Source: an uncultured Actinomycetota bacterium
GTDB lineage: Bacteria; Actinomycetota; Thermoleophilia; Solirubrobacterales; Solirubrobacteraceae
Assembly: GCA_963771675.1 (NCBI GenBank)
Contig: CAVYUJ010000008.1
Coordinates: forward strand, 311,855-335,854
Direction of reading: 5' to 3'
DNA: 24,000 bases
Shown here: positions 699 to 19,672 of the stretch, in pieces
How the letters are laid out: each line of letters starts with the position of its first letter
Numbering within the stretch: position 1 is the stretch's first letter
The notes under the pieces: model-generated
Databases searched by the model: none
Seen by the model: only the letters and a program-made list of their open reading frames with translations
What the model was told of the DNA's origin: nothing
Position numbers and translations under genes: made by a program

Positions 699-1926
699 TC
701 AGGCTTCGTCCTGGGCGCCGAGGAGGTCGTCGAACTCGGCGACCATTCGGGAGCGACGCATGGTGCGTCGGCGCGCGTCGGACAGCTCTCGCACGTAGAC
801 CGCGCGGGTCACATTGGCATCGCGGTGTCCAAGCATGAACGCGACCTCGTCCACGCTTTCGCCAGCAAGCAGCGCGCGGCTTACAACGGTGTGACGGAAG
901 CTGTGCATCGAGGGCAGCGCTCCATGAGGAACCGGCACGGGATTCCCGCGCTCATCCAGGATGTGCAGGACTGGGAAGGTCGGATTCCCATCGTCATCGA
1001 CGGCTTTGACCTGAGCAGCACGCAAGGCCCGAGCGATGTTGCGCTGACTGAAAGGGCGGCCCGAACACGAAGCTGTCCGGGCGAACGAAGGCCGACGTCT
1101 GCCGGTGCGCAGCGAGAAGCCGTGCCAGCTGCGGCGGAATGGGGATCGTTCGCGCCGAGCCGTCAGTCTTGGTCGGGGCGAGGTTTCCGCGTCGATCAAC
1201 CTGATGTGCGAACTCGATCTGGGCGTCGTCGACGTCGTCGACGCGGAGGTTCGCCCAGGTGAGAGCCAGAAGCTCGGAGAGCCGCGCACCCGTCAGAGCA
1301 GCCACGGTGAACAGCGTGCGATACGGCTCGCCGGCGGCCGAGACGGTCTGCTCGAGTTCGCCGCGCTCGAAGATGCGGCGGCGCTTGCCCTTCGACGGCT
1401 TCGGTCGCTCCGAGGAGAGCATCATTGAGACCGGGTTCGTACCGACCCAGCCAAGCCGGCGGGCGGCGTACCGGTAGATCCGGTTCGTCACGCCGATGAC
1501 GATCACGATCGTGGACTCGGCGAGTCCATCCGCGCAAAGGTCGCGGACCAGCTTGGCGAGATCGTCCGGCGTGATCGTGTCGAGGCGACGTGCCCCGAAG
1601 CGGTCGAGCAGATGCTGCTCGACCGCGGTGCGGTAGCAAGACTCCGTCGCGGGCCTGAGGTCAAGCACCGGCCCCTGCAACCAATTCTCGGCAGCATCGG
1701 CTAAGCGGAGCCGGCTGTTATTAGCGACTTGCTCACCTCGAGCGCGCTGCGACAGGATCGTGTCTCGTGCCGCTCGAGCGGCGGTGATGCCTCCATCGAC
1801 CGTGCGCCAGCGCTGCTTGCCACCTCCGTCCTTGAAGCCCACCTCGTACACGCCGGTCGCCCGACGATAGATATTGCGCTCGACTCTGACCCGACGCGGC
1901 TGATTGCCTTCGCTCATCGCCGGCAC
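699..1926 (-). pseudogene. Tyrosine site-specific recombinase (phage-type integrase), frameshifted
   Basis: The N-terminal part is in ORF 994..1926 (SAM-like and core domains, 'ALTGARLSELLAL'). The C-terminal catalytic part is in ORF 699..1289 ('HSFRHTVVSRALLAGESVDEVAFMLGHRDANVTRAVY', i.e. HxxR..H..Y). The frames switch within 'gggcggccc' at about 1055-1066 ('PDSFVF|GRPFSQRNIARAL'). Confidence 0.85.
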
Positions 1927-2337
1927 CTACGCTGCGTGCGGGACGGTCGCAGCCAGATGCCGGGGCCGTCCGCCGCTCCGGCGCCAAGCGTCAAGATCTG
2001 CGCGACGGAAGTAGAGCTTGCAGTTCGGCCCGTCCTGCTCAGACGGAATTGCCCGTTCAGCGGCAAGCTTCCGGAGCGTGTCGCGATGGATCCCCAGGTA
2101 GTCAGCGGCGTGCCGTGAGTCGAACCACTCGTCCGCGCTACTCAGATCCCGGCTGGGGAATTGAGGGGCCACGGTTGCGAGCCGTTCGATCAGGCGCTCG
2201 GCAATCCGATCGATCAGAACGTCGAAGAGCGAGCTCGCGTCGACGGAGTCGATATCGCTGGCCGCATCGGGCCGGCTGCTCCGCATGCGAGGCGCCATGC
2301 TCGCGAGCTCGAGCCGGGGTGAGGCGTACGCTGCCAT
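1927..2337 (-). CDS. Excisionase/MerR-superfamily HTH DNA-binding protein (Xis-like)
   Basis: The C-terminal 'SRHAADYLGIHRDTLRKLAAERAIPSEQDGPNCKLYFRRADLDAW' is an excisionase-type winged HTH. The stop abuts the integrase ATG (1927/1926). The ATG at 2337 is preceded by AAGGAGG 8 nt upstream. Confidence 0.6.
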   Translation of the reverse strand: MAAYASPRLELASMAPRMRSSRPDAASDIDSVDASSLFDVLIDRIAERLIERLATVAPQFPSRDLSSADEWFDSRHAADYLGIHRDTLRKLAAERAIPSEQDGPNCKLYFRRADLDAWRRSGGRPRHLAATVPHAA

Positions 2338-2469
2338 CGTCGGGACCTCCTTCATAGGTCTCGGCCAGGCCCCGGGGTGTTCGCGCACCGCCGGGGCCAC
2401 GTCTTTGCTTATATCTAGAAGCTAGCAAGCGTGGCGGACGGACCCGCTTCCATCTGTAAGCTAGGTGCT

Positions 2470-3695: not shown

Positions 3696-4238
3696 TCAAC
3701 TTGCCGGAATCAACACCCGGTTGATGACGTGAATGACGCCGTTGGAGGTCATGACGTTCGTCTTCGTCACCTGCGCGTCCCCGACGTACACCTTGCCGGA
3801 GGAAACGCGGATGGGAACCGAGCCGCCCTCCAGCGTCTTTGCGGACTTCAGCTTGGTCACCTGCGCCGCGGTGACATCGCCCTTGACGACGTGATACAGA
3901 AGCACCGCCTTGAGCTTCGCGGGGTCCTTGGCGAGCTCGGCCAGCGTCGCCTTCGGAACCGCGGCGAAGGCGGCGTCGGTCGGGGCGAATACCGTCAACG
4001 GGCCGGGCCCCGACAGCGCACCCGCGAGGCCCGCCTGCTTGACGAGCGAAACGAGCGTCTTGAACTCGCCGGCGGCAACGGCCGTCTGGACGATGTTCGA
4101 CTGAGCCGGCGCAGCCGCCGTGCTCGACGTCGATGAGGTTGAGGCGGTGGTAGTCGAACTCGAGGACGAGCCGCCGCATGCGGCCAGCGTCGCGGCCAGC
4201 GCGACGCCGGCCAGAGTGGTGGCAAACAACTTCTTCAT
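3696..4238 (-). CDS. Fasciclin (FAS1) domain lipoprotein, paralog 1
   Basis: Signal peptide plus lipobox 'LAAC'. FAS1 motifs: 'FKTLVSLVKQAGLAGALSGPGPLTVFAPTDAAF', 'LLYHVV', 'NGVIHVINRVLIP'. Most aligned positions over the FAS1 domain match the ORF at 10879-11382. Confidence 0.9.
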   Translation of the reverse strand: MKKLFATTLAGVALAATLAACGGSSSSSTTTASTSSTSSTAAAPAQSNIVQTAVAAGEFKTLVSLVKQAGLAGALSGPGPLTVFAPTDAAFAAVPKATLAELAKDPAKLKAVLLYHVVKGDVTAAQVTKLKSAKTLEGGSVPIRVSSGKVYVGDAQVTKTNVMTSNGVIHVINRVLIPAS

Positions 4239-4274
4239 GGCTATCGGACTCCTTGTAGATACATCACGCGACGA

Positions 4275-4439
4275 TCAGCTCGTCGCGCTGGTTTCACGGA
4301 TACGAGGCGGCTCCGGCGCTGCCCTCCGTGCGGCGTCCTCGCGGCCGTCGAGCACGGCTGCGTAGATGAGCAGCGCGAGTGCCGCGGCGACGATCAACGT
4401 GACTAGCACGCCGACGACGAACAGGCCCGGGGTACTCAT
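4275..4439 (-). CDS. Small single-pass membrane protein (54 aa), absent from the supplied ORF track because it is under 60 aa
   Basis: My own translation: MSTPGLFVVGVLVTLIVAAALALLIYAAVLDGREDAARRAAPEPPRIRETSATS. The ATG overlaps the upstream stop as ATGA (4436-4439). It has one clear TM helix. Confidence 0.4.
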   Translation of the reverse strand: MSTPGLFVVGVLVTLIVAAALALLIYAAVLDGREDAARRAAPEPPRIRETSATS

Positions 4440-4942: not shown

Positions 4943-5035
4943 CTAGACTAGACAGACTCTCTACGGACTTTGGACAGCGTATCTAGTCGGGCCACTGCTG
5001 TCAAGCTTTCGTCGATAGTCTGTCGAAGGTGTCGG
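4943..5035 (-). promoter_or_regulatory. Candidate sigma-70-type promoter overlapped by 11-bp-periodic ACA repeats (LitR/CarH-like operator module, copy 1)
   Basis: On the minus strand: TTGACA (plus 4999-5004), 17 nt, TACGCT (plus 4976-4981). Repeats upstream are ACAGACTATCG/ACGAAAGCTTG/ACAGCAGTGGC. Repeats downstream on the opposite strand are ACAGACTCTCT/ACGGACTTTGG/ACAGCGTATCT. It aligns with the module at 19598-19672 (shared 'ACTCTCTAC(A/G)GAACTT', 'CTAGA'). Confidence 0.45.
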
Positions 5036-5726: not shown

Positions 5727-6770
5727 TTAGCCGCTGGGGAGTTCGCCGAGGGTGACGGTTGTGGTCCGGCGGGTTCCGTTGGTGTTCTCGGCCGTGATGG
5801 TGACTTTGTCGCCGGGGCGGTGGTCGGCGAGTGCGGTCGCGAGGTCGCTGGCATCGGCGATGCCGGTGCCGTTGAGTTTGATGATGGCGTCGCCGGCTGT
5901 GATCCCGGCTTCGGCGGCTGGGCCGTTTGGCTGCACGGTGACGACGAGCGCGCCTGACCGGATGGGGGTGTCGGCGACGCTGACCGCGAGTGACGCTCGG
6001 CGGGAGTTGACCACGCGGCCGTAGCGGATGATCTGCCCGGCGATGTCGGTCACGGTGTTGCTGGGGATGGCGAAGCCGATGCCGGCGGCGGGACTGCCGA
6101 GCTGGGGGTTTGCCGCGGCCAGGGTGGGAATGCCGATCACCTGGGCTTGGAGGTTGATCAGTGCGCCACCGCTGTTGCCCGGGTTGATCGCGGCGCTGGT
6201 TTGGATGGTGTTGGGCAGCACGACGCCGCGCCCCTCGCTGACATCGCGGCCGAGGGCGCTGACGATCCCGTCGGTGACGCTGCTCTGCAGGCCGAGCGGG
6301 TTGCCGACCGCGAGGACGATTTCGCCCACGGCCAGTGTTGAGGAGTCGGCGAAGCGGGCCGGCTTGATGCCCTTACCGGCGCCGATCGTGACGACGGCGA
6401 GGTCGTCGGGCGGGTAGGCGCCGACGAGTCGCGCGGGGAACCGCCGCCCGTCGGCCAGCGTGACCTGCATCCTGGTAGCGCCCTGCAGAACGTGCGCGTT
6501 GGTGACAACGTTGCCCCTCGCGTCGAAGATCACGCCCGATCCCAGACCGGCGTCGGTGGCGATCTGCACGACCTGCGGCTGGGTGGCTTTGACGACCGCG
6601 ACGTACTGCGCCTGGAGCGCCGCCGCGGATGGCTGTGCCGCCGGCTGCGCCACTCCCTGTTGGCTGGTGGAGGTGCCGCTACCGCCGCCTCCGCAGCCGG
6701 CGAGCAAGATCGTCGCCGCGATCAGTGGCGCAAGCCAGCGCGGAGAACGAAGGGGTGCCCGACTGGTCAT
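5727..6770 (-). CDS. htrA: HtrA/DegP-family S1C serine protease with C-terminal PDZ domain, lipoprotein
   Basis: Catalytic motifs are 'TNAHV', 'DDLAVV' and 'GNSGGAL'. The PDZ domain contains 'GALVVTVQPNGPAAEAGITAGDAI'. The lipobox is 'LLAGC'. The ATG at 6770 is preceded by GGAGGTG. The track ORF start at 7112 is an upstream extension overlapping ftsH. Confidence 0.9.
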   Translation of the reverse strand: MTSRAPLRSPRWLAPLIAATILLAGCGGGGSGTSTSQQGVAQPAAQPSAAALQAQYVAVVKATQPQVVQIATDAGLGSGVIFDARGNVVTNAHVLQGATRMQVTLADGRRFPARLVGAYPPDDLAVVTIGAGKGIKPARFADSSTLAVGEIVLAVGNPLGLQSSVTDGIVSALGRDVSEGRGVVLPNTIQTSAAINPGNSGGALINLQAQVIGIPTLAAANPQLGSPAAGIGFAIPSNTVTDIAGQIIRYGRVVNSRRASLAVSVADTPIRSGALVVTVQPNGPAAEAGITAGDAIIKLNGTGIADASDLATALADHRPGDKVTITAENTNGTRRTTTVTLGELPSG

Positions 6771-6774
6771 TCGC

Positions 6775-9039
<2,265 letters not shown>

Positions 9040-9187
9040 GCTCTCGAGTCTCCTTTCGACTGAGCGCCGGAAATGTGTCGTTCAGCCGAAGGCCTCTCCC
9101 GCCCCAAAGGGCCGGCGTGCCCGGGCCACGTGGGCCGTACTGACGAGCGACGCCCGTTCGGGGATACTGCCCCCCGGCACCGCTCAG
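9040..9187 (-). promoter_or_regulatory. Conserved structured 5' leader of ftsH (copy A of a two-copy cis-regulatory RNA candidate)
   Basis: About 85% nucleotide identity with the region upstream of htpX (22472-22623). The closing helix is CUGAGCG..GCCGG / CCGGCGCUCAG, and its 3' strand ends 3 nt before the SD GAAAGGAG. The internal hairpins keep their stems but differ in their loops. Confidence 0.6.
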
Positions 9188-9271
9188 TGCAGCGTCGGGC
9201 CAACCGTCGCCACGAACTCCTGCGACCTGCAGGCCCGCGGCAGTTCGAGAGCCAAGGCGTCATCCTCCGGG

Positions 9272-10018
9272 TCATCGGGCCAGCTCCAGCGTGTTGAGCA
9301 TCTGGCCAAGGCGCTGGTCAAGCCCGGCTGACGACACGCCCAGCGTGCTGGCGATCCTGCCGCGGGGGATCCCGGCGATCATCATCGCGAGCACTGCCTG
9401 CTCCTCGCCGTCAAATACCTGGTGCATCCTGACCGCCACCGCGGGCGGGATCGTCGGCAATATCTGTCGGCCGGCGAGTGTGCTGCGGATCGTTTGGCAC
9501 AGCTCCGCGCCGGTGGCGGCTGTGCTGACGAGCGCGTCGGCCTCAGCGAGGACCGCCGCGGCGGCGAGCAGGCCGTTGGGATAGTCGCAGCGGAGCACGA
9601 CCCGGGGCGGTCGGGATAGGCGTTGGAGCGCCCTGCTGACCCACAGGCCATCGTGATCGCGGAGCTTGTAGTCGACGACGGCGGCGTCGATCCGCTCGCG
9701 CTCAGCAGTGGCGAGCGTCTCCTCGGCGGACGAGACCGCGGCGATGACGCGAAGGTTCGCCTGAGCGTCGAGCAGCTCTGATAATTCTCGGCGTGGCGCC
9801 AGATGATCGCCAGCGACGAGCACGCATGCCGGGCGCTCAGGCGCGGCATCAGCGAGCTCGGCAGGCGCAATAAAGACCCCGGTGTGCCGCCCGAGCGGCT
9901 GGAGCGCTGCGAGCAGACCGTGGTGCGCCGGCTTGGTGGGTGGCCCGCCGGCAAGACCGGGCACACCGGTTGTGGGTCGCGATCGGGGGATGCGTGATTG
10001 TGGGAGCGGGTAGGGCAT
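9272..10018 (-). CDS. Orphan response regulator, atypical receiver domain plus LuxR/FixJ-type HTH
   Basis: REC-like region: 'VLVAGDH...IDAAVVDYKLRDHDG...RVVLRCD...ADALVSTA'. The phospho-acceptor Asp is retained, but the first acidic pair is GD and the conserved T/S and K positions are not canonical. C-terminal LuxR-type HTH: 'EEQAVLAMMIAGIPRGRIASTLGVSSAGLDQRLGQMLNTL'. A Pro-rich N-terminal extension of about 60 aa is present if the ATG at 10018 is used. No histidine kinase is present in the window. Confidence 0.75.
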   Translation of the reverse strand: MPYPLPQSRIPRSRPTTGVPGLAGGPPTKPAHHGLLAALQPLGRHTGVFIAPAELADAAPERPACVLVAGDHLAPRRELSELLDAQANLRVIAAVSSAEETLATAERERIDAAVVDYKLRDHDGLWVSRALQRLSRPPRVVLRCDYPNGLLAAAAVLAEADALVSTAATGAELCQTIRSTLAGRQILPTIPPAVAVRMHQVFDGEEQAVLAMMIAGIPRGRIASTLGVSSAGLDQRLGQMLNTLELAR

Positions 10019-10025
10019 CGTCGGG

Positions 10026-10808
10026 TCAGGCGGGTTGGAGGGTTCCGGCGAACACTTGCCAGGCGAGGGCGGATTTGGCGAATAGGCTGAGCAGCATGTA
10101 GACGCGCTCGCCGTACAGGTAGTCGCGCCAGCGGCCGGCGCGGCGGTACTGCAGGGCCATGTTGAGGGCGAAGATGTTGAAGAAGGCGAAGATCGAGGCG
10201 TAGATCGCGTACACGAACGCGGGCGGGTCCTGGGCGCCGATCAGGTAGATCACCACGGCGATCCAGGGCACGATCCCGGCGAGGCAGCCGAACCAGTAGG
10301 CGGTCCAGTTGGTGCGTTTGGTGGTCTGGTTGTGCAGCTCCATGATCCAGCCGAACAGGATCATCGTGGCGTTGAGGGCGAAGATGAGGATCAGGCTGGC
10401 GATGTCGTAGATGCCGACGAGCATCGCGATCACGACCATCATCAGCGAGGAGGACAGGGAGTATTCGATCCAGCGGGCGGGCTGGATCCCGCGGGTGAGG
10501 TTGCGCTCATACCAGGCGTGCAGGCGCGGTGAGGCCAGCGCGGCGTGCGCGATTGCGGAGATGAGCAGGAACGCGGCGACCAGCGGGCCGATCCGCACCC
10601 GGAGCAGCTCGTCGGGGACGGCGACGAGCTTGTTCGTGGCGCTGTCCATGCGCAGGAACGCGCTGGTCACCGGCAGCGAGAACGAGCTGGCCAGCGCCAG
10701 GATCGCCAGCGCCTGGGTGAGGTGAAGGACCGAGAGTCCGGCGTTCCAGCGGCGCAGGCTGTGCAGCCGATCGGCGGCGGTGGGGGGAGAAGTGGTGAGC
10801 GTCGTCAT
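10026..10808 (-). CDS. Heliorhodopsin (HeR), 7-TM retinal protein
   Basis: Long stretches match heliorhodopsin 48C12 as I remember it. 'RWIEYSLSSSLMMVVIAMLVGIYDIASLILIFALNATMILFGW' vs 'RWVEYSLSSSVMIVLIAQICGIADIVALLAIFGVNASMILFGW'. 'WFGCLAGIVPWIAVVIYLIG' vs 'WFGCIAGIVPWIGLLIYVIA'. 'GERVYMLLSLFAKSALAWQVFAGTLQPA' vs 'GERAYIVLSLVAKSALAWQIFSGTLIPA'. The Schiff-base Lys (..FAKSALAWQ), counterion Glu (RWIEY) and both His positions are present. Confidence 0.9.
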   Translation of the reverse strand: MTTLTTSPPTAADRLHSLRRWNAGLSVLHLTQALAILALASSFSLPVTSAFLRMDSATNKLVAVPDELLRVRIGPLVAAFLLISAIAHAALASPRLHAWYERNLTRGIQPARWIEYSLSSSLMMVVIAMLVGIYDIASLILIFALNATMILFGWIMELHNQTTKRTNWTAYWFGCLAGIVPWIAVVIYLIGAQDPPAFVYAIYASIFAFFNIFALNMALQYRRAGRWRDYLYGERVYMLLSLFAKSALAWQVFAGTLQPA

Positions 10809-10830
10809 TGAAGCGGGCGGTAGACGGTCT

Positions 10831-10859
10831 GCAGGCCGCCGCGCGAAGCGGCGGCCTGC
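10831..10859 (-). terminator. 12-bp GC hairpin between the fasciclin-2 stop and the heliorhodopsin start (terminator/attenuator candidate)
   Basis: GCAGGCCGCCGC-GCGAA-GCGGCGGCCTGC (plus-strand reading). It lies in the 70-nt gap between 10879 and 10808. There is no U-tract. Confidence 0.45.
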
Positions 10860-10878
10860 CGAAGGGAGGGAGTGAGCG

Positions 10879-11382
10879 TCAGCGGGGGATCAGCACCTGG
10901 TTGATGACGTGGATCACGCCGTTGGAGGCGCCGATGTCGGCCTTGATGACGCGTGCGCCGCCGACCGTGACCGTGCCGTGGTTGACGCGAACCTTCAGCG
11001 ACTGGCCGTTGAGCGTCTTGATCGAGCGCAGCTTGACGACCTTCGCGGCGGTCAGCTTGCCCTTGGCCACGTGGTAGAGCAGGACCGCGCGCAGCTTCGC
11101 CTTGTCTTTGGCCAGCGCCTTCAGGGTCGCCTTGGGCACCTTCGCGAACGCCGCGTCGGTTGGGGCGAACACGGTGAGCGGCCCCTTGCCTTCAAGCGCG
11201 CCGGCCAGCCCCGCCTGCTTGACCAGCTTGACGAGCGTCTTGAACTGCCCGGCCGCGACGGCGGTCTGGACGATGTTGGGCTTGGCGGGCTTCGCCGACG
11301 CCATCGACACCACGGGCGCGATGGCCGAGAGTGACAACGCGCCGACGGCAGCCAGCGCTACGAACTGATGTTTGAACCTCAT
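10879..11382 (-). CDS. Fasciclin (FAS1) domain secreted protein, paralog 2
   Basis: The ATG at 11382 (MRFKHQF..) is preceded by AAGGAGA. It has a signal peptide and the same FAS1 motifs as 3696-4238 ('FKTLVKLVKQAGLAGALEGKGPLTVFAPTDAAF', 'NGVIHVINQVLIP'). The track ORF start at 11487 is an extension. Confidence 0.9.
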   Translation of the reverse strand: MRFKHQFVALAAVGALSLSAIAPVVSMASAKPAKPNIVQTAVAAGQFKTLVKLVKQAGLAGALEGKGPLTVFAPTDAAFAKVPKATLKALAKDKAKLRAVLLYHVAKGKLTAAKVVKLRSIKTLNGQSLKVRVNHGTVTVGGARVIKADIGASNGVIHVINQVLIPR

Positions 11383-11392
11383 CCCGGTCTCC

Positions 11393-11474
11393 TTAGACAG
11401 AGGTTTGACAATGATTGAACGAATGTACCCTCGTGGGCCGTCACTGTCAAGGTTCTGTCTAACGTGGGTATAAT
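11393..11474. promoter_or_regulatory. Divergent promoter region with a large inverted repeat and 11-bp-periodic ACA repeats (LitR/CarH-like operator module, copy 2)
   Basis: The inverted-repeat arms are TTAGACAGAGGTTTGACA (11393-11410) and TGTCAAGGTTCTGTCTAA (11445-11462). The minus-strand promoter is TTGACA (11445-11450), 17 nt, TACATT (11422-11427) for fasciclin-2. The plus-strand TATAAT (11469-11474) lies 6 nt before the litR GTG. The 14-mer TGTCAAGGTTCTGT is identical at 19647-19660. Confidence 0.5.
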
Positions 11475-11480
11475 GATTTC

Positions 11481-12347
11481 GTGTCATTTCCCGCAGAGGG
11501 TCTTCGGATCGGCGAGTTCGCCCGCCGGGTCGGTGTCAGCGCCGCGGTGCTGCGCGCCTGGGAGCGCCGGTACGGGCTGCTCGATCCGGTGCGATCGCCC
11601 GGTGGCTTTCGGCTCTACACCGCGCAGGACGCCGAGCGCGTCGGGCGGATGCAGCAGGGTCTCGATCAGGGCCTCTCGGCGGCCGAGGCAGCGCGCGCGG
11701 CGCGAGCGAGCGCCAGGCCCTCAGAAGGCCGCCTGCTCGAAGACGCAGCTGAACGCCTGCTGGCGGCGATCCGCGCCTACGACGAGCCCGGCGTGCACGA
11801 GGTCCTGGACGAGAGCTTCGCGGCGTTCGGCCTGGAAGCCGTGCTGCGCCAGCTCATCCTTCCCGCCCTCACGCAGGTCGGGGCCGAGTGGGAGCAGGAG
11901 ACGCTCGCGGTCAGCCAGGAGCACTTCGCCAGCAACGTGATCCGCGCCCGGCTGCTGTCCCTGGCCCGCTTATGGGGCCGCGGCGGGGGACCGGTGGCGG
12001 TCCTGGCCTGCGCCCCCGGCGAGCAGCACGACATCAGCCTGCTGGCCTTCGGACTGGTGCTGCGATCGCACGGCTGGCGCATCATCTTCCTGGGCGCCGA
12101 CACGCCGATCACCACGCTGGCGCAAGCCGCCGAGGGCACACGGCCCACGCTGACCGTCCTGGCCAGCTTTGACCCGGCGCTCCTGGAGGTGGAGTCAACC
12201 GCCATCCGCCGCCTCGCGAGAGAGCTCCCGCTCGTGCTGAGCGGTCCCGGGGCAACCGAGCAGCTGTGCAAGAGGCTTCGCGTGCCGCGGCTCGACGGCG
12301 ACCTGATCATCGCAGCCCATGAGATCGCCCGCAGCACAACGGCCTGA
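11481..12347 (+). CDS. litR: MerR-family, B12-binding-domain transcriptional regulator (LitR/CarH-type light-responsive regulator)
   Basis: The N-terminal MerR HTH is 'LRIGEFARRVGVSAAVLRAWERRYGLLDPVRSPGGFRLY'. The Wx9EH signature 'WEQETLAVSQEH' of AdoCbl-CarH-type photoreceptors is present. The B12-binding-domain His motif is 'GEQHDIS', followed by a Rossmann-like 'RIIFLGADTP'. The GTG start lies 6 nt after TATAAT, which suggests a leaderless mRNA. Confidence 0.85.
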   Translation: MSFPAEGLRIGEFARRVGVSAAVLRAWERRYGLLDPVRSPGGFRLYTAQDAERVGRMQQGLDQGLSAAEAARAARASARPSEGRLLEDAAERLLAAIRAYDEPGVHEVLDESFAAFGLEAVLRQLILPALTQVGAEWEQETLAVSQEHFASNVIRARLLSLARLWGRGGGPVAVLACAPGEQHDISLLAFGLVLRSHGWRIIFLGADTPITTLAQAAEGTRPTLTVLASFDPALLEVESTAIRRLARELPLVLSGPGATEQLCKRLRVPRLDGDLIIAAHEIARSTTA

Positions 12348-12843
12348 CGCGTCCTGGGCCAGGCGGATTATCGCGCTGGTCCTCGAGAACCCCGGGGACG
12401 CGGTTTACGGGGCGATCGCCGTGGGCGCTCTGCTCGCGGCCGAGACTCCGCGGCAGGAGACGTACGCCAAGACCGTCGCGGCAGTGATCATCACGCTCTT
12501 GCTCTACTGGCTGGCGCACTCCTACGCCGACCTGGCCGGAGAACGGCTGCGATCGGGCGCGAGGCTGACCGCCCAAGGGCTGTTGGCGAGGATGCTGCGC
12601 GAGCTGCCGATCCTCATCGGCGCGGCAATCCCGCTGGGCACGCTGCTGATCTGCTGGATCGCCGGAACCGGCCTGTCCGCCGCCGTCCTCGCGGCGGTGT
12701 GGACCTCGGCCGGGATCATCCTGGTCATCGAGCTGGCCGCCGGACTCCGCGGCCGCCTCAGGGGCCGGCAGCTGCTCTCCCAAGCCCTCGTCGGCGCGTC
12801 GCTCGGATCGCTGATCATCCTCCTCAGGGCGCTGCTCCACTGA
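12319..12843 (+). CDS. Integral membrane protein, unknown family (about 4-5 TM)
   Basis: 174-aa ORF with hydrophobic helices ('AVYGAIAVGALLAA', 'VAAVIITLLLYWLAH', 'LPILIGAAIPLGTLLICWIAG', 'AAVLAAVWTSAGIILVIELAA'). It overlaps the litR 3' end by 29 nt. Confidence 0.55.
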   Translation: MRSPAAQRPDASWARRIIALVLENPGDAVYGAIAVGALLAAETPRQETYAKTVAAVIITLLLYWLAHSYADLAGERLRSGARLTAQGLLARMLRELPILIGAAIPLGTLLICWIAGTGLSAAVLAAVWTSAGIILVIELAAGLRGRLRGRQLLSQALVGASLGSLIILLRALLH

Positions 12844-12950: not shown

Positions 12951-13416
12951 TTACCAGCCGAGCGTGCCGGGTGGTCCTTTGAACGGGCCGGTCAGGTCGG
13001 AGGTGATCCAGCCTCCGTAGAAGTCGCTCTCCTGCGCGTGAACGCGCTCGTCGTCCAGCCAGGCCGCGTCGACGCGTCCGGGGTAGAAGGCGACGTGATC
13101 GCGCAGCGCCTCATACTCGGGCGCCGGGTTCGGGTAGCACCAGCCCACCGCGATGCATCGCCGTCCGTCGACGATCGCGTCGAGATACCGTGCGGCGCCC
13201 TTGAACTCGCACCTGGTCGGGCGTGTCCGGCTCTCGGTCAGGAACGTCGCGGCGAACGTCTGCCGGTGGGATGTAGATCGTCGGTGGATGGCTGGTCTCG
13301 AGCACCCGCAGAGCATGGGTGGACTCGGCGAGCACTTCCCCGGCCAGCTCGACTCGGACCCGACGCCGGCAGGGCACGACCGCGGGTGGCCGCGGGTACT
13401 CCCAGACGCGCTCCAT
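12951..13416 (-). pseudogene. DUF427 domain protein, frameshifted
   Basis: The N-terminal part 'MERVWEYPRPPAVVP..RVRVELAGEVLAEST..LRVLETSHPPTIYIPPADV' is in ORF 13111..13647. The C-terminal part 'TRCEFKGAARYLD...VAFYPGRVDAAWLDDERV..QESDFYGGWIT' is in ORF 12951..13316. The frames switch at about 13255-13270. Confidence 0.8.
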
Positions 13417-13427
13417 CCTCCGCTCGC

Positions 13428-14376
13428 CTAGCCCGCGCCCGCCGGCGTGGCAGCGAGGCGGCGGAGCTCGGCGTCCTCGGCGACCGCGCGGCGGAGCGCT
13501 TCGTCGAAGCTGACCGGTTGGATCTCGAACAGCTCCATCCCGGAGCGGTCGGTGACAACGGTCGGGACCGCCAGTCCCTCGATCAGCGGCCGTGCCACAC
13601 CGGCGTCGACCGGGGTGACGAGCCCGATCCACAGCGATGACAGCCACGGGGTGATCAGCGGCACGGGGATCCGCGGGCGGTGCGCGATGCCGAGCACCGC
13701 GGCCATCCGGTCGAGCATCTCGCCGTAGGACAGGACGTCCGGGCCGCCGATCTGAATCTCCCTGCCGGCCGACTCCTCAATGTCCAGCGCCTGCGCCAGG
13801 TAGCTCAGGGTGTCCTCGATCGCGATCGGCTGGGTGGGGTTCTGCAGCCAGGCGGGTGCGATCATCGCGGGCAGTCGCTGGACCAGGTAGCGCAGCGTGC
13901 GGTAGGACTCGCTCTCCGGGCCGACGACCATCCCCGCCCGGAAGTACGTCAGTGGCGGCCCGTGCTCGCGCAGCAGTCAGCGCCGTCTCGTGGCGGCTGC
14001 GCAGGTGCCGGAGTGCGGGCGCTCACCGAGACCGCCCAGGTAGAGCACGCGCCCGATTCCCTCCTCGTACGCCATGCGAGCGAAGGCGGTCGCGCCGGCG
14101 CGCTCGCGGGCCTCGAACTCCGCGCGTCCGCCGCGGCCCATCGAGTGGATCAGGTAATAGGCCGCGTCGATCCCGCGGCCGGCGCCACGGAGCGTCTCCG
14201 GGCGCAGGACATCCCCCTCGCGCAGGTCGAGTCCGTCGTCTTCGAGCGCGCGCCGCCCGGCTCCCGTGGCGGTCGCGGACGAGGCATCGCACCTCGTGCC
14301 CGGACGCGGCGAGGGTTCGCGCGAGACGGCCGCCGATGAACCCGGTCGCGCCGGTGACCAGCACGCGCTGACTCAT
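13428..14376 (-). pseudogene. NAD(P)-binding NmrA/atypical-SDR-like protein, multiple frameshifts
   Basis: The N-terminus 'MSQRVLVTGATGFIGGRLARTLAASGHEVRCLVRD' is in ORF 14023..14376 and then becomes garbled. The middle part ('IDAAYYLIHSMGRGG..', 'VLYLGGLGE') is in other frames, with an in-frame TGA near 13978. The C-terminus 'YFRAGMVVGPESESYRTLRYLVQRLP...' is in ORF 13428..13931. There are at least 3 shifts. The start overlaps the SRPBCC stop as ATGA (14373-14376). Confidence 0.8.
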
Positions 14377-15287
14377 GCCGCGGCCGCTTCCGCGGGGGGT
14401 TCGGGCCTGAGCGCGGTCGCCAGGCGCTCGGCCTTCTCCTGCTCAAAGCCGCCGAGCTCGCAGGCCAGGATCCGGCCGGAGCGCTCAACGACCAGGACGG
14501 CGATCGTGCCGGTGCCGGCGAGCCCCAGGTTCTCGACGACCTTCGGGACGTCGGTGTAAACGGTGACGGTGCGGGCGCGCGCGGCGGGATCCGGGATGCC
14601 GCGGGTCATGCCGCCGTCGATGAACCACCGGACGGGGCTGTAGGTCGACGAGAGCACGGGCAGCTCGTACACCGCGACGTCCGTGCGGCGCTGCTCGAGC
14701 CGGGTCAGCCACGGCAGCCACCGATCGACGAGCCCCTGCTGCTCGCGGCGGAAGGCAACCACAAGGAGGTTGTAGGGCTTGGCTAGATCGCCCGGCAGCT
14801 CATAGCTGCGGCCGTCGAGCGAGCGACCGCTCAAAGCGCTCAGCGCCTCCGGCTGCACTGGCGCCAGCTTGTGCTTGAGACCTGCGAGGGCGCGGTCGCC
14901 GACGCGATGGAACACGAGCCCCAGGAGCGGGTCGGCGAGCCGCAACGGTCCCTTGAGCAGGAGCTCGGCGTCGTAGGTGATCCGGGTGCCCTCGCCGAGT
15001 GCTTCGAAGGTGATCCTGTCGTTTGAGATCACGCTGGCGTTCTCGCCGCGGAAGGTCACCGCGCGTGGCGGGTCGTACTCGACGATCCGGTAGGTGATCG
15101 GCGTCTTGCGGCCGAGGAACTCGGCGACCAACCGGAACTCGGTCCCCTCCCCGACGGCGGCTTCGCTGCACCGTTCGGCCTCGACCACCCCCGGGTCCCA
15201 TTCCTGGGTGCTCGAGAAATCGCTGATGTAGGCGAACACGTCCTCGCGTTCGCGCGGTGTGTCAATCGTTGCTCGGTAGCGAGCCAT
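14373..15287 (-). CDS. SRPBCC (polyketide cyclase/START-like) domain protein fused to a C-terminal domain of about 150 aa with unknown fold; intact
   Basis: The ATG at 15287 (MARYRATIDTPREREDVFAYISDFSSTQEWDPGV..) is preceded by AAGGAGA. The 304 aa contain no interruption. The C-terminal half ('LPGDLAKPYNLLVVAFRREQQ..WLPWL..') looks redoxin-like but has no CxxC. The track ORF start at 15458 is an extension. Confidence 0.75.
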   Translation of the reverse strand: MARYRATIDTPREREDVFAYISDFSSTQEWDPGVVEAERCSEAAVGEGTEFRLVAEFLGRKTPITYRIVEYDPPRAVTFRGENASVISNDRITFEALGEGTRITYDAELLLKGPLRLADPLLGLVFHRVGDRALAGLKHKLAPVQPEALSALSGRSLDGRSYELPGDLAKPYNLLVVAFRREQQGLVDRWLPWLTRLEQRRTDVAVYELPVLSSTYSPVRWFIDGGMTRGIPDPAARARTVTVYTDVPKVVENLGLAGTGTIAVLVVERSGRILACELGGFEQEKAERLATALRPEPPAEAAAA

Positions 15288-16275
15288 CGTGTTTCTCCTT
15301 CTCTGAGGTGGTGGTGTGCTGCGCCCAGCCGCTGAGCTGGGCGCACCGCGCCCAGAGCTGCTCGCGCTCCTGCTGGGTCTCTCGTGTCCACGGGAGCAGG
15401 TGCGTGGGCCGCGGCCGGCGGTCGTGCCAGAACCGGCCCGTGCTGCGGCCGGGCTCATCCGCGGCGCCGAGCCAGACGATCGTGTCGGCGCCCTGCTCGG
15501 GCGTCCTCAGCAGCGGTCGCGTCGGCCTGTAGAACCGCGGCAGGGAGGTCTGCACGCCCGGGGTGTCGACCCATCCGGGGTGCATCGAGTGCACGACGAC
15601 GCCGCGAGCTCGCGCAGCCGCTGCGCCCACAGTTCGGTGAGGATCACCTGCGCGCGCTTGGTCCGCGCGTACGCCGCCGGCCCGTCGAACTCTCCGCGCT
15701 CGCTCTGCAGGTCATCGGCCCTGATCCGCTGCGTGTACATGCCGCCGGAGGAGACGTTGACGATCCGCGCCGGAGCGCTGCGCTCCAGCAGCGGCAGCAG
15801 CAGAGCCGTGAGCAGGAACGGGCCGAGCACGTTGGTCGCGAACGTCACCTCGATCCCGTCCGGCGACAGCGCGCGGGTCGGGGGCAGGACGCCGGCGTTG
15901 TTGACCAGCACGTCGAGGCGGTCTGCCTGCGCTGTGAAGCGCTCGGCGAACTGCCTGACCGACTGAAGATCGCTCAGATCACACAGCCCGACATGCACGT
16001 CGCGGTTGCCGGACCGCTCCGCGATCCCCGCGCGCGCCCGCTGGCCGCGTTCCGCGCTGCGGACGACCAGCCACACGGTCGCGCCGAGGCGCGCGAACCC
16101 CTCCGCGGCCGCGAGCCCGAGCCCCGAGCTGGCGCCCGTCGACCATCACCACCCCGCCGTCCAGCGACGGGAGCTCCGAGGCGCTCCAGCCGCGACGGCG
16201 GATCCGGTAGCCCACGTTCGTGTAGCCACCGATCACGCTGCGGTCAAGCACGCTGTCGAGCACGGAACCCGTCAT
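15262..16275 (-). pseudogene. Short-chain dehydrogenase/reductase (SDR), two frameshifts
   Basis: There are three frame pieces. The first is 'MTGSVLDSV...GGVVMV' followed by an extra base in GTCGACGGG (about 16139-16142). This restores 'TGASSGLGLAAAEGFARLGATVWLVVRSAERG...NNAG...SSGGMY...YARTKRAQV' (ORF 15507..16076). A second shift near 15600-15615 leads to 'VVVHSMHPGWVDTPG...' (ORF 15262..15630). Confidence 0.8.
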
Positions 16276-17531
16276 GCGCTCGCCGCCAGATCGTGCGGCC
16301 CGCTCCGACCCGGCCGTCCACGCGCTGGGCGGAGGGGAGTTGAGAGTGGGGCTTGGTCAGCAGCAGCTGGACGTCGCAGATCCGCCGCTCGGCGAATCCG
16401 GCCTCGCAGTAGGCGAGGTAGAGCGTCCAGAGCCGGCGGAAGCGCTCGTCGTAGCCCGAGCTCCGCGAGCCGTCGGCGTGGGCGCTGAAGTTCGTCGCGC
16501 CAGCGCCGCAGCGTCTCGACGTAGTGGGCGGTGATGTCCTCGAGACCAGCGACCTGCATGTCGGTTCGCCGGGCGACGTCGCGGGTGATGCACCTCGAGC
16601 GAGGGCAGGCACCCGCCCGGGAAGATGTAGGTGTTGATGAACGACTTCGCTGCCTTCTCGACCTCGTAGGCGCGGTCATCGATCGTGATCGCCTGCAGCA
16701 GCATCGCCCCGTCGGGCGCGAGCAGCTCCGAGCACTTGGCGAAGAACGTGCCGAACTGCGCGCCAGCCGACCGCCTCGATCATCTCGATCGAGACGAGCT
16801 TGTCGTAGCGGCCGCGCAGGTCGCGGTAGTCCTCCATCAGCACGGTGACCCGGTCCTCCAGTCCGGCCCGCCGCACCTGCTCGAGCGCGTAGTCGTGCTG
16901 CTCGCGCGAGATCGTCGTCGTGGTGACGTGGCAGCCGCGGGTCGCTGGCGGCGTAGAGCGCGAACGCTCCCCAGCCGGTTCCGATCTCGAGCACGCGATC
17001 CCGCGGACCGAGCTCGAGCGTCTCGCAGATCCGCTCGAGCTTTGCGACCTGAGCCTGCTCGAGCGTCATCCCGTGGTGCTCGAACACCGCGCACGAGTAG
17101 CTCATCGTCGGATCGAGCATCCGCGCGAACAGCTCGTTGCCGAGGTCGTAGTGGGCGGCGATGTCGCGCCGGCGCGCGCCGCCGCGTGGCGCGGACGCAG
17201 CGAGCGCGCGGCGCGCTGCAGCGGCCAGCCGCACCGGCGCCAGCCGCGCGCGAAGGCGGTCGAGGCCGCCGGCGTTGCGCGCCGCGAGCCTGATCACCGC
17301 GACCAGGTCCGGCGAGTCCCACAGGCCCTCGAGCGTACGCCTCCGCCAGTCCGCGGCTGCCGCGCAGCAGCATCGGCCAGACTCGCGAGGAGTGCAGATC
17401 GAACCGTCGCGACCGGGGGCCCGGAGCCGTACGCGTGCCGCTCGCCGTCCTCGACGACGACCAGGCGTGCCGACACTCGATCCGCCGCAGCAGGATCGAC
17501 ACGATCCAGCGGGACGCGCGTCGACGGTCAT
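16272..17531 (-). pseudogene. Cyclopropane-fatty-acyl-phospholipid-synthase-like SAM-dependent methyltransferase, at least 5 frameshifts
   Basis: Family-typical pieces are scattered over three frames: 'RLVVVEDGERHAYGSGPPVATVR', 'LLRGSRGLAEAY', 'LWDSPDLVAVIRL...DIAAHYDLGNELFARMLDPTMSYSCAVFE...VLEIGTGWGAFALYAA', 'TTISREQHDYA..RVTVLMEDYRDLRGRYDKLVSIEMIEAVG', 'LLQAITIDDRAYEVEKAAKSFINTYIFPGGCLPSL', 'DITAHYVETLRRWR', 'RFRRLWTLYLAYCEAGFAERRICDVQLLLTKP'. The stop of one frame overlaps the SDR ATG as ATGA (16272-16275). Confidence 0.85.
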
Positions 17532-18283
17532 GCGCCGACCGCCTTCGGGTGCGGGTGGACGCGGCACGCCGGCGAGCTTCAGCGCCAGCGCGTGCGCGTA
17601 GATCAGCGCCAGCACGCGCACCGTGCGCGAGCGGGTAGCGCGCGGTCATCCGCGCCATCGACGCACGGGTCAGCTCCCGGCGGCGCAGCGACGAGCGTCG
17701 CGTCGAACACGGCGCGTCGCCCGCGCGGCTCGAGTCGATGTGGACCGACAGCGTCCGGCCCGGCGCGGTCGCCCGCGCGTCGTAGCGGTGATCCATGCCC
17801 ATGAACGGCGACACGTGCATCGCCTTCTCGAACTGCGCCGTGAGCACGCCGCCAGTCCGGCGCCGGCCGCAGCACGTAGGCGTGCCGCTCCCCCCAGGGC
17901 GTGTTCGTCACCTCCGCGACCACCGCCTCGCACGCGCTCGCCGGCCGGGTCGAAGCAGTAGTAGAAGCTGACCGGGTTGAAGCAGTGCCCGAACGAGCGC
18001 AGCTGGGTCAGCACGCGGATCGGGCCCGCCGGGCCGCTCGCCGGTCGTGCTCGCTGCACCGCTCGCGCACCGCGCGGTCGAGCGGCACGCGCGGGATCGC
18101 CGAGGTAGTCGCGGCGGCGAAAGCGGACCAGCCCCGGGACGCGGGCGACGAGCCGGCCGCCCAGCAGCCGCGGCAGCTCGTCGAGGTCGATGTAGGCGAG
18201 CGCCAGCCGATGGCGTGAACTCGCGCCGCGGCTCGCGAGCGCCGGTGGCGAATCGTGCCCTCGTAGATGCAGCTCGCGCTCAC
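17532..18283 (-). pseudogene. DUF1365 family protein, multiple frameshifts
   Basis: Pieces: 'SCIYEGTIRHRR', 'LAYIDLDELPRLLGGRLVARVPGLVRFRRRDYLGDP', 'IRVLTQLRSFGHCFNPVSFYYCFD', 'VAEVTNTPWGERHAYVL', 'KAMHVSPFMGMDHRYDARATAPGRTLSVHID', 'RVLALIYAHALALKLAG'. They lie in different frames. The boundaries are approximate. Confidence 0.8.
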
Positions 18284-19534
18284 AGCCGTGCTCCGAAGCG
18301 CTCGGCCGACGCGCAGCGCGCTCGCCACGCCGTCCTCGTGGAACCCCCAGCCCCAGTACGCGCCGCAGAAGTGCGTGCGGTTGCGCCCGTCTGATCTCGT
18401 GCGACCCGCGCCTGCGCCTGCACCCCGCCGTCCGTGTACACCGGATGCGCGTAGGGGATCGTGCGGATGACCCGAGCCGGGATCGATCGCCTCGGTGCGG
18501 TTGAGCGTCACGCAGAACTCGCGCTCGGCGCGCAGCGACTGCAGGCGGTTCATGTGGTAGGTGACCGTGCGTCGCCGCCTTGGGCTCGGCGAGCAGGTGG
18601 TAGTTCCAGCTCGCCCACGCCCGCCGGCGACGGGGCAGCATCCGCGCATCGGTGTGCAGCACGGCCTCGTTGGGCTGATACGGGATCGCGCCGAGGATCT
18701 CGCGCTCGCGGCCGCTGGCGTCGGCCAGCAGCGCCAGCGCCTGGTCCGAATGGGTCGCCAGCACCACCTCGTCGAACCGCTCCGCCTCGCCGCCCGCGCG
18801 GCGTCACCAGGACGTGATCATGATGGCGGGTGACCGCCTGAACCGGGGTGCGCAGCCGCAGCCGGTCGCGAGAACGGAGCCGTCAGCGCCTCGACGTACC
18901 GAGCCGAGCCCCCGCGAATCGTCCGCCAGCGACGGCCGGCCGCGGAACGACAGCATCCCGTGATTGTCGAAGAACTCGGCCAAGAAACGAGCCGGGAAGC
19001 TCCACATCTGCCGCGGCGTCCGCCGACCACACCGCCGAGGCCTGCGGCACGATCAGCCGCTCGATGAACGCATGTGAGAACCGATGCTGCTCCAGCCACT
19101 CGCGCAGCGAGAGCATCGGGCGCACGATCATCGAGCAGCTCACGCGCGGCACGGTTGAACCGCGCCAGGTCGGCGACCATGCGGTGAAACCAGGGGGTGA
19201 CGAGATGTGCTCGTTTGGCGAACAGGGCGTTCGGTGAGCCGCTGCCGTACTCGAAATCGCCGATGCCGTCGCTGACGCTGAAGCTCATCGTCGACGGCTG
19301 CCACGCGACGCCCAGCCGCCGGAGCAGCCGCTCGAAGTTCGGGTAGTTGCGATCGTTGAACACGATGAACCCCGTGTCGACCTCGTGCGTCTCGTCCGCC
19401 GTGTCGACCCGGATCGTGTTCGTGTGACCTCCGGCATACCCGGCTGCCTCGAACACCGTGACCTCGTGCGCCGGGTGCAGCAGATGGGCGACCACCAGTC
19501 CGGAAACACCTGCGCCAACCACAGCGATCTTCAT
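18284..19534 (-). pseudogene. FAD/NAD(P)-binding amine-oxidase-like oxidoreductase, at least 6 frameshifts
   Basis: The N-terminus 'MKIAVVGAGVSGLVVAHLL..VTVFEAAGYAGGHTNT' (GxGxxG) is intact to 'FNRAARELLDD' (shift at about 19115-19125 in 'catcgggcgc'). The following pieces are each in a new frame: 'MLSLREWLEQHRFSHAFIERLIVPQASAVWSAD', 'MWSFPARFLAEFFDNHGMLSFRGRP', 'WRTIRGGSARYVEALTAPF', 'DRLRLRTPVQAVTRHHDHVLVTPRG', 'FDEVVLATHSDQALALL...AIPYQPNEAVLHTDARMLPRRR.AWASWNY', 'TVTYHMNRLQSL..', 'HFCGAYWGWGFHEDG'. Confidence 0.85.
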
Positions 19535-19597: not shown

Positions 19598-19672
19598 ACA
19601 GAACTTCGACAACCTTGTGCCGAGTCTAGCGACATGGCCCTCCTTTTGTCAAGGTTCTGTTCAAGGTTTGTA
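19598..19672 (-). promoter_or_regulatory. Candidate promoter of the 7-gene operon, overlapped by 11-bp-periodic ACA repeats (LitR/CarH-like operator module, copy 3)
   Basis: On the minus strand: ACAAACCTTGA/ACAGAACCTTG/ACAAAAGGAGG, with ACA every 11 nt. TTGACA is at plus 19647-19652, followed by 18 nt and TAGACT at plus 19623-19628. On the opposite strand downstream are ACAGAACTTCG/ACAACCTTGTG (19598-19619). 'AACCTTGACAA' fits the published CarH half-site pattern nAnnTnnACAn. Confidence 0.5.

Follow-up and report, generated by a model that had tools for sequence, protein, structure and literature searches.

A heliorhodopsin gene in a candidate LitR/CarH light-response locus of Solirubrobacterales, with an atypical orphan response regulator as a recent and apparently eroding neighbour

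The stretch of 24,000 nucleotides analysed here (the window; contig CAVYUJ010000008.1 of assembly GCA_963771675.1, from an uncultured Actinomycetota bacterium of the Solirubrobacterales) carries a heliorhodopsin (HeR) gene, followed on the same strand by a gene for an atypical orphan response regulator and preceded by a gene for a secreted fasciclin-domain protein. Divergent from this operon lies litR, which encodes a LitR/CarH-type photoreceptor repressor. The original prediction, made from the letters of the window, had proposed that HeR passes a light signal directly to the regulator as its transducer. Here, we have compared the locus with its relatives, all of which are metagenomic, and suggest that litR and the fasciclin-HeR operon form the more deeply conserved unit and that the regulator is a shallow addition to it. 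The features on which the argument depends are listed below; the promoters and operators among them are pattern matches backed by conservation.

10026..10808, minus strand: HeR gene, 260 aa (Pfam, alignment with TaHeR, G+C content at third codon positions (GC3), ratio of nonsynonymous to synonymous substitution rates (dN/dS))
9827..10025, minus strand: 3' flank of HeR and spacer, readable as a 64-codon Pro-rich extension from the ATG at 10018
9272..9826, minus strand: probable coding sequence of the orphan atypical NarL-family regulator, 183 aa and stop, GTG start at 9826
9464-9826, minus strand: receiver domain of the regulator (Response_reg, profile alignment, AlphaFold2 (AF2) model)
9275-9463, minus strand: three-helix remnant of the helix-turn-helix (HTH) domain of the regulator (AF2, profile alignment)
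10879..11382, minus strand: secreted fasciclin-domain protein, first gene of the operon (Fasciclin, 139.7 bits; ATG at 11382, Shine-Dalgarno (SD) sequence AAGGAGA)
11422..11450, minus strand: promoter-like site of the fasciclin-HeR operon, TTGACA-17-TACATT (sigma-70-like scan)
11393..11414, no strand: operator-like box, arm 1 of a 22-nt inverted repeat, between the operon -10 and the SD sequence
11441..11462, no strand: operator-like box, arm 2, overlapping the operon -35 and the litR promoter
11481..12347, plus strand: litR, LitR/CarH-type adenosyl-B12 (AdoB12) photoreceptor repressor, divergent from the fasciclin-HeR operon (Pfam, CarH alignment)
19647..19664, minus strand: third copy of the operator-like box, at a second promoter, with 2 mismatches, 5' of an amine-oxidase/DUF1365/cyclopropane-synthase cluster
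5010..5027, minus strand: fourth, weaker copy of the box, with 3 mismatches, next to TTGACA-17-TACGCT

The open reading frame (ORF) at 10026-10808 encodes a genuine full-length heliorhodopsin, as had been predicted. It matches Pfam PF18761 over profile positions 1-242 of 242 with 333.7 bits (cut-off 26.7), and aligns end to end, at an E-value of 6.5e-77, with TaHeR (6is6), the heliorhodopsin of a Thermoplasmatales archaeon whose structure has been solved. The counterion block RWIEYS, which carries the counterion Glu in transmembrane helix (TM) 3, is in register with RWFEYS of TaHeR, and the Schiff-base block SLFAKSALAWQ, which carries the Lys in TM7, is in register with SLVAKSALAWQ. All three HeR motifs quoted in the prediction are found in the translation of this ORF, and its GC3 is 0.94.

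The longest frame of the regulator is opened by an ATG and has 248 codons (9272-10018, minus strand). A separately assembled contig (L001; loci are given L numbers throughout) has the identical sequence and so confirms that of the gene in the window. Response_reg passes its Pfam cut-off narrowly (36.1 bits against 30.2), and a profile built from the regulator and its 15 closest relatives aligns over both domains with DevR, ChrA, VraR and NarL (E-values from 4e-21 to 5e-18). In the AF2 model, which was computed from the family alignment, residues 64-181 form a receiver of the beta5-alpha5 fold with a predicted local distance difference test (pLDDT) score above 90, and the best Foldseek matches to the model are DesR, ChrA, LiaR, VraR, RcsB and NarL. 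The protein is of the NarL/FixJ type, having a CheY-like receiver fold with an incomplete phosphorylation pocket.

That the regulator has a receiver joined to a LuxR-type HTH, as predicted, stands for the receiver but not fully for the HTH. GerE/LuxR gave no Pfam match in the window regulator even at E<=1, and is reached individually by 7 of 16 family members (the regulator and its 15 relatives). In the AF2 model the receiver is followed by a linker helix and by helices at residues 204-214, 219-226 and 230-247, after which the protein ends; likewise, the alignment of the family profile with DevR and ChrA extends through the recognition helix only. The HTH is accordingly homologous to the LuxR-type domain but truncated, its fourth helix being missing from the model. 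At the positions of K179 and K182 of DevR, which we take to be DNA-contacting lysines, the window regulator aligns Ala and Asp/Glu.

The receiver is also altered where phosphorylation takes place. In CheY-like receivers the conserved Lys, Ser/Thr and acidic residues are required for normal phosphorylation chemistry and switching. By alignment with DevR, the pocket of the window regulator consists of G70-D71, D116, C144 and T166, where DevR has D8-D9, D54, T82 and K104. The prediction of a degenerate receiver that keeps its acceptor Asp was therefore borne out: the window copy reads GD/D/C/T, against DD/D/S/K in 77 of the 77 alignable relatives that are not linked to HeR. Nor is there a histidine kinase in the 24-kb window, again as predicted. 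Pfam scans of all long ORFs of the window found neither HisKA nor HATPase_c, and a tblastn search of the window with the partner kinase of the regulator's family gave a best E-value of 0.32, so that no remnant kinase lies downstream of the regulator. With substituted pocket residues and no partner kinase, the protein is best described as an atypical orphan response regulator, and within the window it does lie directly 3' of HeR on the same strand.

The junction between the two genes is less tight than it first appears. The distance of 7 nt (cccgacg) between the TGA of HeR and the ATG of the 248-codon ORF is literally correct, but the co-translation that had been read from it does not follow. 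The ATG at 10018 belongs to the 3' flank of HeR, since it is conserved in L090, where a HeR of 90% identity has no regulator within 300 nt and the first ~70 nt after its stop, including the ATG, are still conserved. The Pro-rich N-terminal extension of about 60 aa fared no better. Its 64 codons have a codon log-odds of -0.06, against 0.25-0.60 for real coding sequence, a GC3 of 0.63-0.77 and an almost neutral dN/dS of 0.63-0.87, and residues 1-60 are disordered in the AF2 model (pLDDT 33-52). A 71-nt deletion falls within the stretch in L002, and the conserved ATG of L167 does not share the reading frame of the receiver. In the relative P0002 (99% identical) the recorded gene call starts at GTG 9826, the GVG position, giving a protein of 183 aa and a gap of ~199 nt to HeR. 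Taken together, the extension, and hence the 7-nt junction, is probably not translated, and translational coupling across it is unlikely.

The ~70 nt 3' of the HeR stop are kept even at loci that lack the regulator (window 9950-10025; L090 3565-3640; L089 2578-2650); no hairpin or Rfam family was found that accounts for this conservation, and an Rfam scan of the whole window for a riboswitch or small RNA, in the spacer or elsewhere, came back empty. The only terminator-like hit between the genes, a weak hairpin at 9878-9895, was rejected as a terminator, since it scores no better than chance and relatives do not keep its T-run. The sigma-70-like scan of 8900-11600 found no promoter between HeR and the regulator. 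Since there is neither a promoter-like site nor a conserved terminator between them, co-transcription of the two genes is plausible.

How deep is the linkage of the regulator to HeR? A metagenome scan with HeR gave 80 loci, whose neighbouring genes were mapped by tblastn. A regulator gene 3' of HeR was found only at loci whose HeR shares at least 90% identity with that of the window (L001, L002, L004, L018, L087, L088 and L167-171). Within this clade it lies directly after HeR in every member, whatever follows downstream. At HeRs of 77-86% identity it is absent from the 1.6-6 kb of downstream sequence available in L089, L092, L095, L097 and L098; the genes found 3' of these HeRs are unrelated, that of L089 being the amine oxidase of the cyclopropane-synthase cluster. 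These same loci keep 1-3 fasciclin genes upstream of HeR together with the divergent MerR/B12 gene, and HeRs of 67% identity or less have none of these neighbours. The pairing thus recurs throughout its clade, as the original prediction would have it, but the clade is shallow and the regulator family is otherwise free of HeR. A conserved partnership between HeR and a transducer is not what this distribution shows.

Where the regulator came from is suggested by its family. Close homologues are rare, with only 17 among 5.8 billion proteins. Searching one genome per species turned up 80 family loci, nearly all in metagenome-assembled genomes (MAGs) of Solirubrobacterales from soil. In about 75 of the 80 the regulator-like gene is followed by a HAMP/HisKA_3 kinase and then by a complete NarL-type regulator, and the same triad is present on the metagenome contigs L003 and L005. 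HeR lies upstream of the family gene in a single locus of the 80, L018. The triad (L003, L005, L007-L086) is specific to Solirubrobacterales, and its first gene encodes a regulator-like protein with a three-helix HTH. It is often present in several copies per genome, with five in the MAG MFD01872.bin.2.90 and tandem duplicates in, for example, L026, L038, L054 and L063.

The triad proteins resemble the window regulator across receiver and HTH (42-54% identity), and have in common with it a C-terminal end of three helices and, at the acceptor site, an Asp-Tyr motif. In triad members the pocket is the canonical DD/D/S/K, genes for a kinase and a second regulator follow directly, and dN/dS is 0.10-0.23; the window gene, by contrast, has GD/D/C/T, no kinase, HeR upstream and a dN/dS of 0.4-0.8. 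In a neighbour-joining tree the HeR-linked copies form one clade, within which the pocket reads DD/D/C/K in L167, ED/D/C/K in L004, DD/D/C/T in L087 and L171, and GD/D/C/T in the window. The acceptor Asp is kept in all copies, and the change from Ser to Cys at the switch position is fixed across the entire clade. The MAG that holds the HeR-linked L018 also carries an ordinary triad copy, L033. Because the HeR-linked copies form one clade, lose the pocket stepwise and can occur beside a triad copy in the same MAG, the window regulator is a recent, relocated duplicate from the triad family that has lost its kinase and is losing its pocket step by step. Independence of a kinase would accordingly not be ancestral, as the family is otherwise always kinase-linked.

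The substitution rates suggest that selection on the HeR-linked copies is relaxed. We estimated dN/dS by the Nei-Gojobori method from overlapping pairs covering 54-121 codons. The receiver has a median of 0.38 (0.27-0.64) and lies below neutral in 18 of 18 pairs, and the C-terminal HTH domain has a median of 0.62 (0.25-1.67). For the same genome pairs the median of HeR is 0.13; FtsH, encoded downstream of the regulator, has 0.14-0.26. Triad copies at similar dS have values of 0.10-0.23 (about 0.18), like their kinases. The codon log-odds of the regulator past codon 64 is 0.25-0.33, below the 0.36-0.60 of neighbouring genes (0.60 for HeR).

The gene is also broken in several relatives. A 1-nt deletion in the codons of the acidic pair and a 1-nt insertion about 370 nt further on are common to L018 and L088 and put the receiver out of frame; as one of these loci is from a GTDB MAG and the other from a JGI metagenome contig, the disruption is recorded twice independently. 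L002 has lost all sequence past about residue 185, so that the HTH is gone, L004 has a 4-nt insertion in the recognition helix with read-through to ftsH, and P0007 (L171) has a C-terminal frameshift, also in the recognition helix. HeR is intact in all five. In L167-170 the converse is seen: the regulator is intact, and HeR is missing ~76 nt at its 5' end and is frameshifted early on. Because HeR is found intact beside a broken regulator and the regulator intact beside a broken HeR, neither gene depends on the other for its persistence. These results suggest that the HeR-linked copies are under relaxed selection and that their pocket and HTH are eroding. Maintenance of the regulator as a partner finds no support in the relaxed constraint or in the breakage in four lineages whose HeR is intact, although the dN/dS of the receiver is still below 1.

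The ORF at 11481-12347, divergent from the operon, is, judging from its sequence, a bona fide LitR/CarH-type B12 photoreceptor repressor. Its MerR_1 (53.4 bits) and B12-binding_2 (50.9 bits) matches are above the Pfam cut-offs, with B12-binding just below (30.8 against 32.1), and it matches Thermus CarH/LitR (3whp and 5c8d) over the full length at 7e-34. The Wx9EH motif is in register, WEQETLAVSQEH in LitR corresponding to WHRGEIGVAEEH in Thermus CarH, as is the E-x-H motif (PGEQHDIS in LitR, PGERHEIG in Thermus CarH).

Between litR and the operon lie 98 nt. The promoter-like site at 11422-11450 is the sole sigma-70-like site in 8900-11600, with 0.2 expected, and the footprint alignment A4 shows no variation in its -35. 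A TATAAT lies 6 nt before the GTG of litR, which would imply a leaderless litR transcript. The two arms of the 22-nt inverted repeat are 82% complementary and bracket the operon -10. They are composed of GACA units at 11-bp spacing, which do not vary even in orthologous regions with a LitR of only 66-75% identity.

The box, TTAGACAGANNNTTGACA, occurs in 4 copies in the window, with 0.12 expected, and matches once in 1.13 Mb of unrelated Solirubrobacterales control loci. The copy at 19647-19664 has the same layout as at the operon (left arm, -35, -10, right arm), and an identical box lies 5' of the same cyclopropane-synthase cluster in L002. The weaker copy at 5010-5027 lies upstream of a small membrane ORF and a second fasciclin gene (3696-4238), and a box is also present at the second fasciclin gene of L004. 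Orthologous boxes are found in L002 (at both promoters), L004, L018, L088-L091, L093 and L097. LitR is the obvious candidate to bind them, since conservation of the box extends to loci without the regulator and LitR is never missing.

A fasciclin gene lies upstream of every HeR of at least 77% identity, and the divergent arrangement of litR and the fasciclin-HeR operon persists where HeR identity has dropped to 77% and LitR identity to 66%. The comparison therefore points to litR and the divergent fasciclin-HeR operon, with their shared boxes, as a more deeply conserved unit than the pair of HeR and regulator.

We argue, with moderate confidence, that this part of the genome of a Solirubrobacterales soil bacterium is a light-response island in which LitR controls a light-induced operon, and that the regulator is a passenger or second-tier member of this operon and not an obligate transducer of HeR. 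In the dark, AdoB12-bound LitR would bind the boxes over the divergent promoters and repress the genes for fasciclin and HeR and, downstream of them, those for the regulator and the FtsH and HtrA-like proteases. Light would lift this repression, so that fasciclin and HeR and, in this clade, the regulator and FtsH/HtrA could be made. The same box before the cyclopropane-synthase cluster would place that cluster in the same LitR regulon. HeR would then most likely be an output of light-regulated transcription here, not its input. The reading frame of the regulator is intact in this genome; if the protein is active, it may act as a phosphorylation-independent regulator or as a protein-binding module, its level being set by LitR-dependent co-transcription with HeR, which would make it a second tier like that of the LitR-LitS system of Streptomyces.

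Several points weigh against this view. The regulator sits directly after HeR across three downstream contexts, as a functional pair would show. The receiver dN/dS of 0.27-0.64 is below 1, which indicates some purifying selection, and the Ser-to-Cys change is fixed in the clade; this residual constraint and the fixed Cys could reflect a new function and not decay. Some of the frameshifts come from single assemblies and may be sequencing errors, only that of L018 and L088 being replicated, and the dN/dS values come from non-independent pairs with few codons. The assignment of the boxes to LitR draws on adjacency and co-conservation.

Among the alternatives, the one that survives best is that the regulator is a functionless relic, a duplicated triad gene that landed 3' of HeR, is becoming a pseudogene and has a frame that is open by chance in this genome. 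It is disrupted in 4 of about 11 sampled lineages at a dS of only 0.2-0.5, the dN/dS of its HTH is close to 1, the pocket is lost progressively in the clade from DD/D/C/K through DD/D/C/T to GD/D/C/T, and its coding signal is weaker than that of neighbouring genes; the nearby cyclopropane-synthase cluster of the window is also full of frameshifts. We nevertheless consider this explanation rather unlikely, as the receiver is below neutral in every pair, the frame is intact in seven lineages and the receiver and HTH are modelled with confidence (pLDDT above 90).

The mechanism of the original prediction takes HeR as a sensory rhodopsin whose light-driven conformational change is passed by contact to the pseudo-receiver, so that the HTH alters transcription. 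Its logic, in which a membrane rhodopsin acts on a DNA-binding protein encoded next to it, is that of Anabaena sensory rhodopsin (ASR) and its soluble transducer ASRT. A Gloeobacter rhodopsin is likewise reported to act on an HTH regulator (PMC11217422), and direct partners have been shown for heliorhodopsins themselves, namely glutamine synthetase (PMC9529153), a photolyase (PMC9769723) and an ABC transporter (PMC11109279). These precedents, the adjacency of the two genes on one strand with neither a promoter-like site nor a conserved terminator between them, the persistence of this adjacency throughout the clade despite differing downstream genes, the degenerate pocket without a kinase and the receiver dN/dS below 1 all speak for direct transduction. 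The pairing, however, is confined to HeRs of at least 90% identity. The regulator is broken or without HTH in L018/L088, L002, L004 and L171, where HeR is intact with a dN/dS of 0.13, and the HTH, with a dN/dS of 0.62 and values up to 1.67, is nearly neutral in its evolution and has no fourth helix. Acidic or small residues also stand in place of the presumed DNA-contacting lysines. The 7-nt junction and the N-terminal extension are probably non-coding, and LitR offers a simpler route from light to transcription. Unlike the partners of ASR and of the Gloeobacter rhodopsin, the partner here would be decaying and is not conserved with its rhodopsin, which moreover is a heliorhodopsin of inverted topology. 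No comparative evidence favours a direct interaction between HeR and the regulator, and we regard this mechanism as improbable.

A variant of it is that the receiver of the HeR-linked paralogue has been co-opted as a phosphorylation-independent partner of the cytoplasmic face of HeR, the HTH being dispensable. This would fit the disruptions, three of the four being confined to the HTH, together with the partial purifying selection on the receiver and the clade-wide change from Ser to Cys. We give it the same small chance as direct transduction; if true, a heliorhodopsin would for the first time be seen to use a receiver domain as its output module, at a stage of evolution that is still early and unstable.

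It is least likely, indeed barely credible, that the regulator is still phosphorylated, in trans and with no link to HeR, by the HisKA_3 kinase of a paralogous triad: the acceptor Asp is present in all copies, L004 and L167 keep the Lys, L167 keeps both acidic residues and genomes can hold several triad paralogues (L018 and L033 in one MAG; five in MFD01872.bin.2.90), but the window copy is without the conserved Lys, the Ser/Thr and one acidic residue, and relaxed selection counts against a maintained kinase interface.

Around these genes the window holds further features, of which three adjoin the operon or litR:

6775..9039, minus strand: FtsH protease gene, downstream of the regulator (Pfam AAA, Peptidase_M41)
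5727-7112, minus strand: HtrA-like protease gene (Pfam Trypsin_2, PDZ)
12319..12843, plus strand: membrane protein of 174 aa, overlapping the end of litR (no Pfam match)

The two protease genes are possibly in the same transcript as the HeR operon. Their order downstream of the regulator is also found in L004 and L087 and not in L002, L018 or L088. Their ORFs overlap by ~340 nt in the window, and in L004 (1795-5109) they are called as one FtsH-HtrA fusion of 1104 aa, which would mean either an unusual fused protease in this clade or a frameshift in one record. In L167-L170 ftsH is cut after 287 codons by an insertion of a serine recombinase and an integrase. A 79-codon ORF between regulator and ftsH (9036-9275, minus strand) overlaps its two neighbours by ATGA, at the stop of the regulator and at the start of ftsH, and in P0003 and P0006 it is read as extending the C-terminus of the regulator; with a codon log-odds of -0.54 it was rejected as a gene and treated as the non-coding 5' leader of ftsH.

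Relatives without ftsH differ downstream. In L018 (10033-11460), L088 (8830-10250) and L171 (3078-4642) the regulator is followed by another fasciclin gene and a second, divergent LitR/B12-binding paralogue (41-43% identical), and in L002 (11169-12839) by a fasciclin gene and a TspO/MBR tetrapyrrole-binding protein. These downstream genes are further ones with a light or oxidative-stress theme.

The 174-aa membrane protein is kept next to LitR in L001, L002, L018, L088 and L090, and could belong to the light regulon as one more member or act as a co-factor. The window's second fasciclin gene (region 3696-4420, minus strand) is 73% identical to the first and has a small hydrophobic ORF before it; in L097 a similar small membrane ORF lies between the LitR and fasciclin genes. 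Besides the two fasciclin proteins, Pfam matches in the window include TerC, ExoD, an M48 peptidase, a CNNM/CBS protein, and the oxidoreductase and cyclopropane-synthase cluster.

This cluster (12951-19534, minus strand) comprises genes for an amine oxidase, DUF1365, a cyclopropane-fatty-acid synthase (CMAS), a short-chain dehydrogenase/reductase (SDR), a polyketide cyclase, an NmrA-like protein and DUF427, and is intact in L002. In the window the amine oxidase, DUF1365, CMAS, SDR, NmrA-like and DUF427 genes are each split over 2-5 frames and the polyketide cyclase gene is unsplit; the adjacent 5.7-12.9 kb has no frameshifts. The splitting is either real pseudogenisation of a photo-oxidative-stress cluster or a local assembly error. 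A mobile element may border the island, as the left end of the window (994-2400, minus strand) has one ORF resembling a phage integrase and another of the HTH_17, excisionase type.

Atypical orphan NarL-type regulators such as WhiI/BldM and JadR1 of Streptomyces are known in Actinomycetota. Like the window regulator, they combine a receiver with a LuxR-type C-terminal domain, have no adjacent kinase and are substituted at the Lys, Thr/Ser and acidic positions, their activity presumably being set by expression or by partners. The window regulator differs from them in being a very recent derivative of a kinase-linked family, in lacking the fourth HTH helix, in its apparently relaxed selection and in being broken in sister lineages.

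The closer parallel of the locus is with LitR/CarH regulons, as described in Streptomyces (PMC11519972) and for CarH of Thermus and Myxococcus (PMC4557120, PMC8156234). Shared with these are the MerR HTH and B12-binding domains, the Wx9EH and E-x-H motifs, a divergent, putatively light-induced operon, repeated operator-like units over the promoters and a second regulator in the operon, as in the cascade of LitR and second-tier LitS in Streptomyces (PMC11519972). The differences are that the predicted targets here are fasciclin, HeR, the atypical regulator and proteases, not carotenoid genes, and that the putative second-tier factor is a degenerate response regulator whereas LitS is an extracytoplasmic function (ECF) sigma factor.

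Enrichment of two-component genes near HeRs has already been published (PMC8612252), and to this extent a HeR-linked response regulator is not new; an orphan receiver-HTH group directly 3' of HeR is not among published groups. Of the ten groups of frequent HeR operon neighbours described, which include MerR-family, TerC and SDR proteins, none is a response-regulator group, and the MerR-family neighbours are named there as a category only (PMC11109279). As in those neighbourhoods, HeR of the window lies in an operon with candidate partners, and MerR-type, TerC and SDR genes are present here too, but our comparative data argue that the MerR-type neighbour regulates HeR and not the reverse. In a literature search for HeR with LitR, CarH or fasciclin we found no paper making an explicit link.

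The regulator offers a clean natural case of a response regulator degenerating once it has been parted from its kinase. As the function of heliorhodopsins is largely open, any conserved partner would be valuable; the eye-catching orphan regulator appears to be a shallow, eroding add-on to HeR, and the LitR-box regulon that contains HeR is likely to be the more useful lead. If the LitR model is true, the published MerR group of HeR neighbours would have to be reinterpreted, and HeR in Solirubrobacterales would be a light-induced member of a B12-photoreceptor regulon and not a primary sensor.

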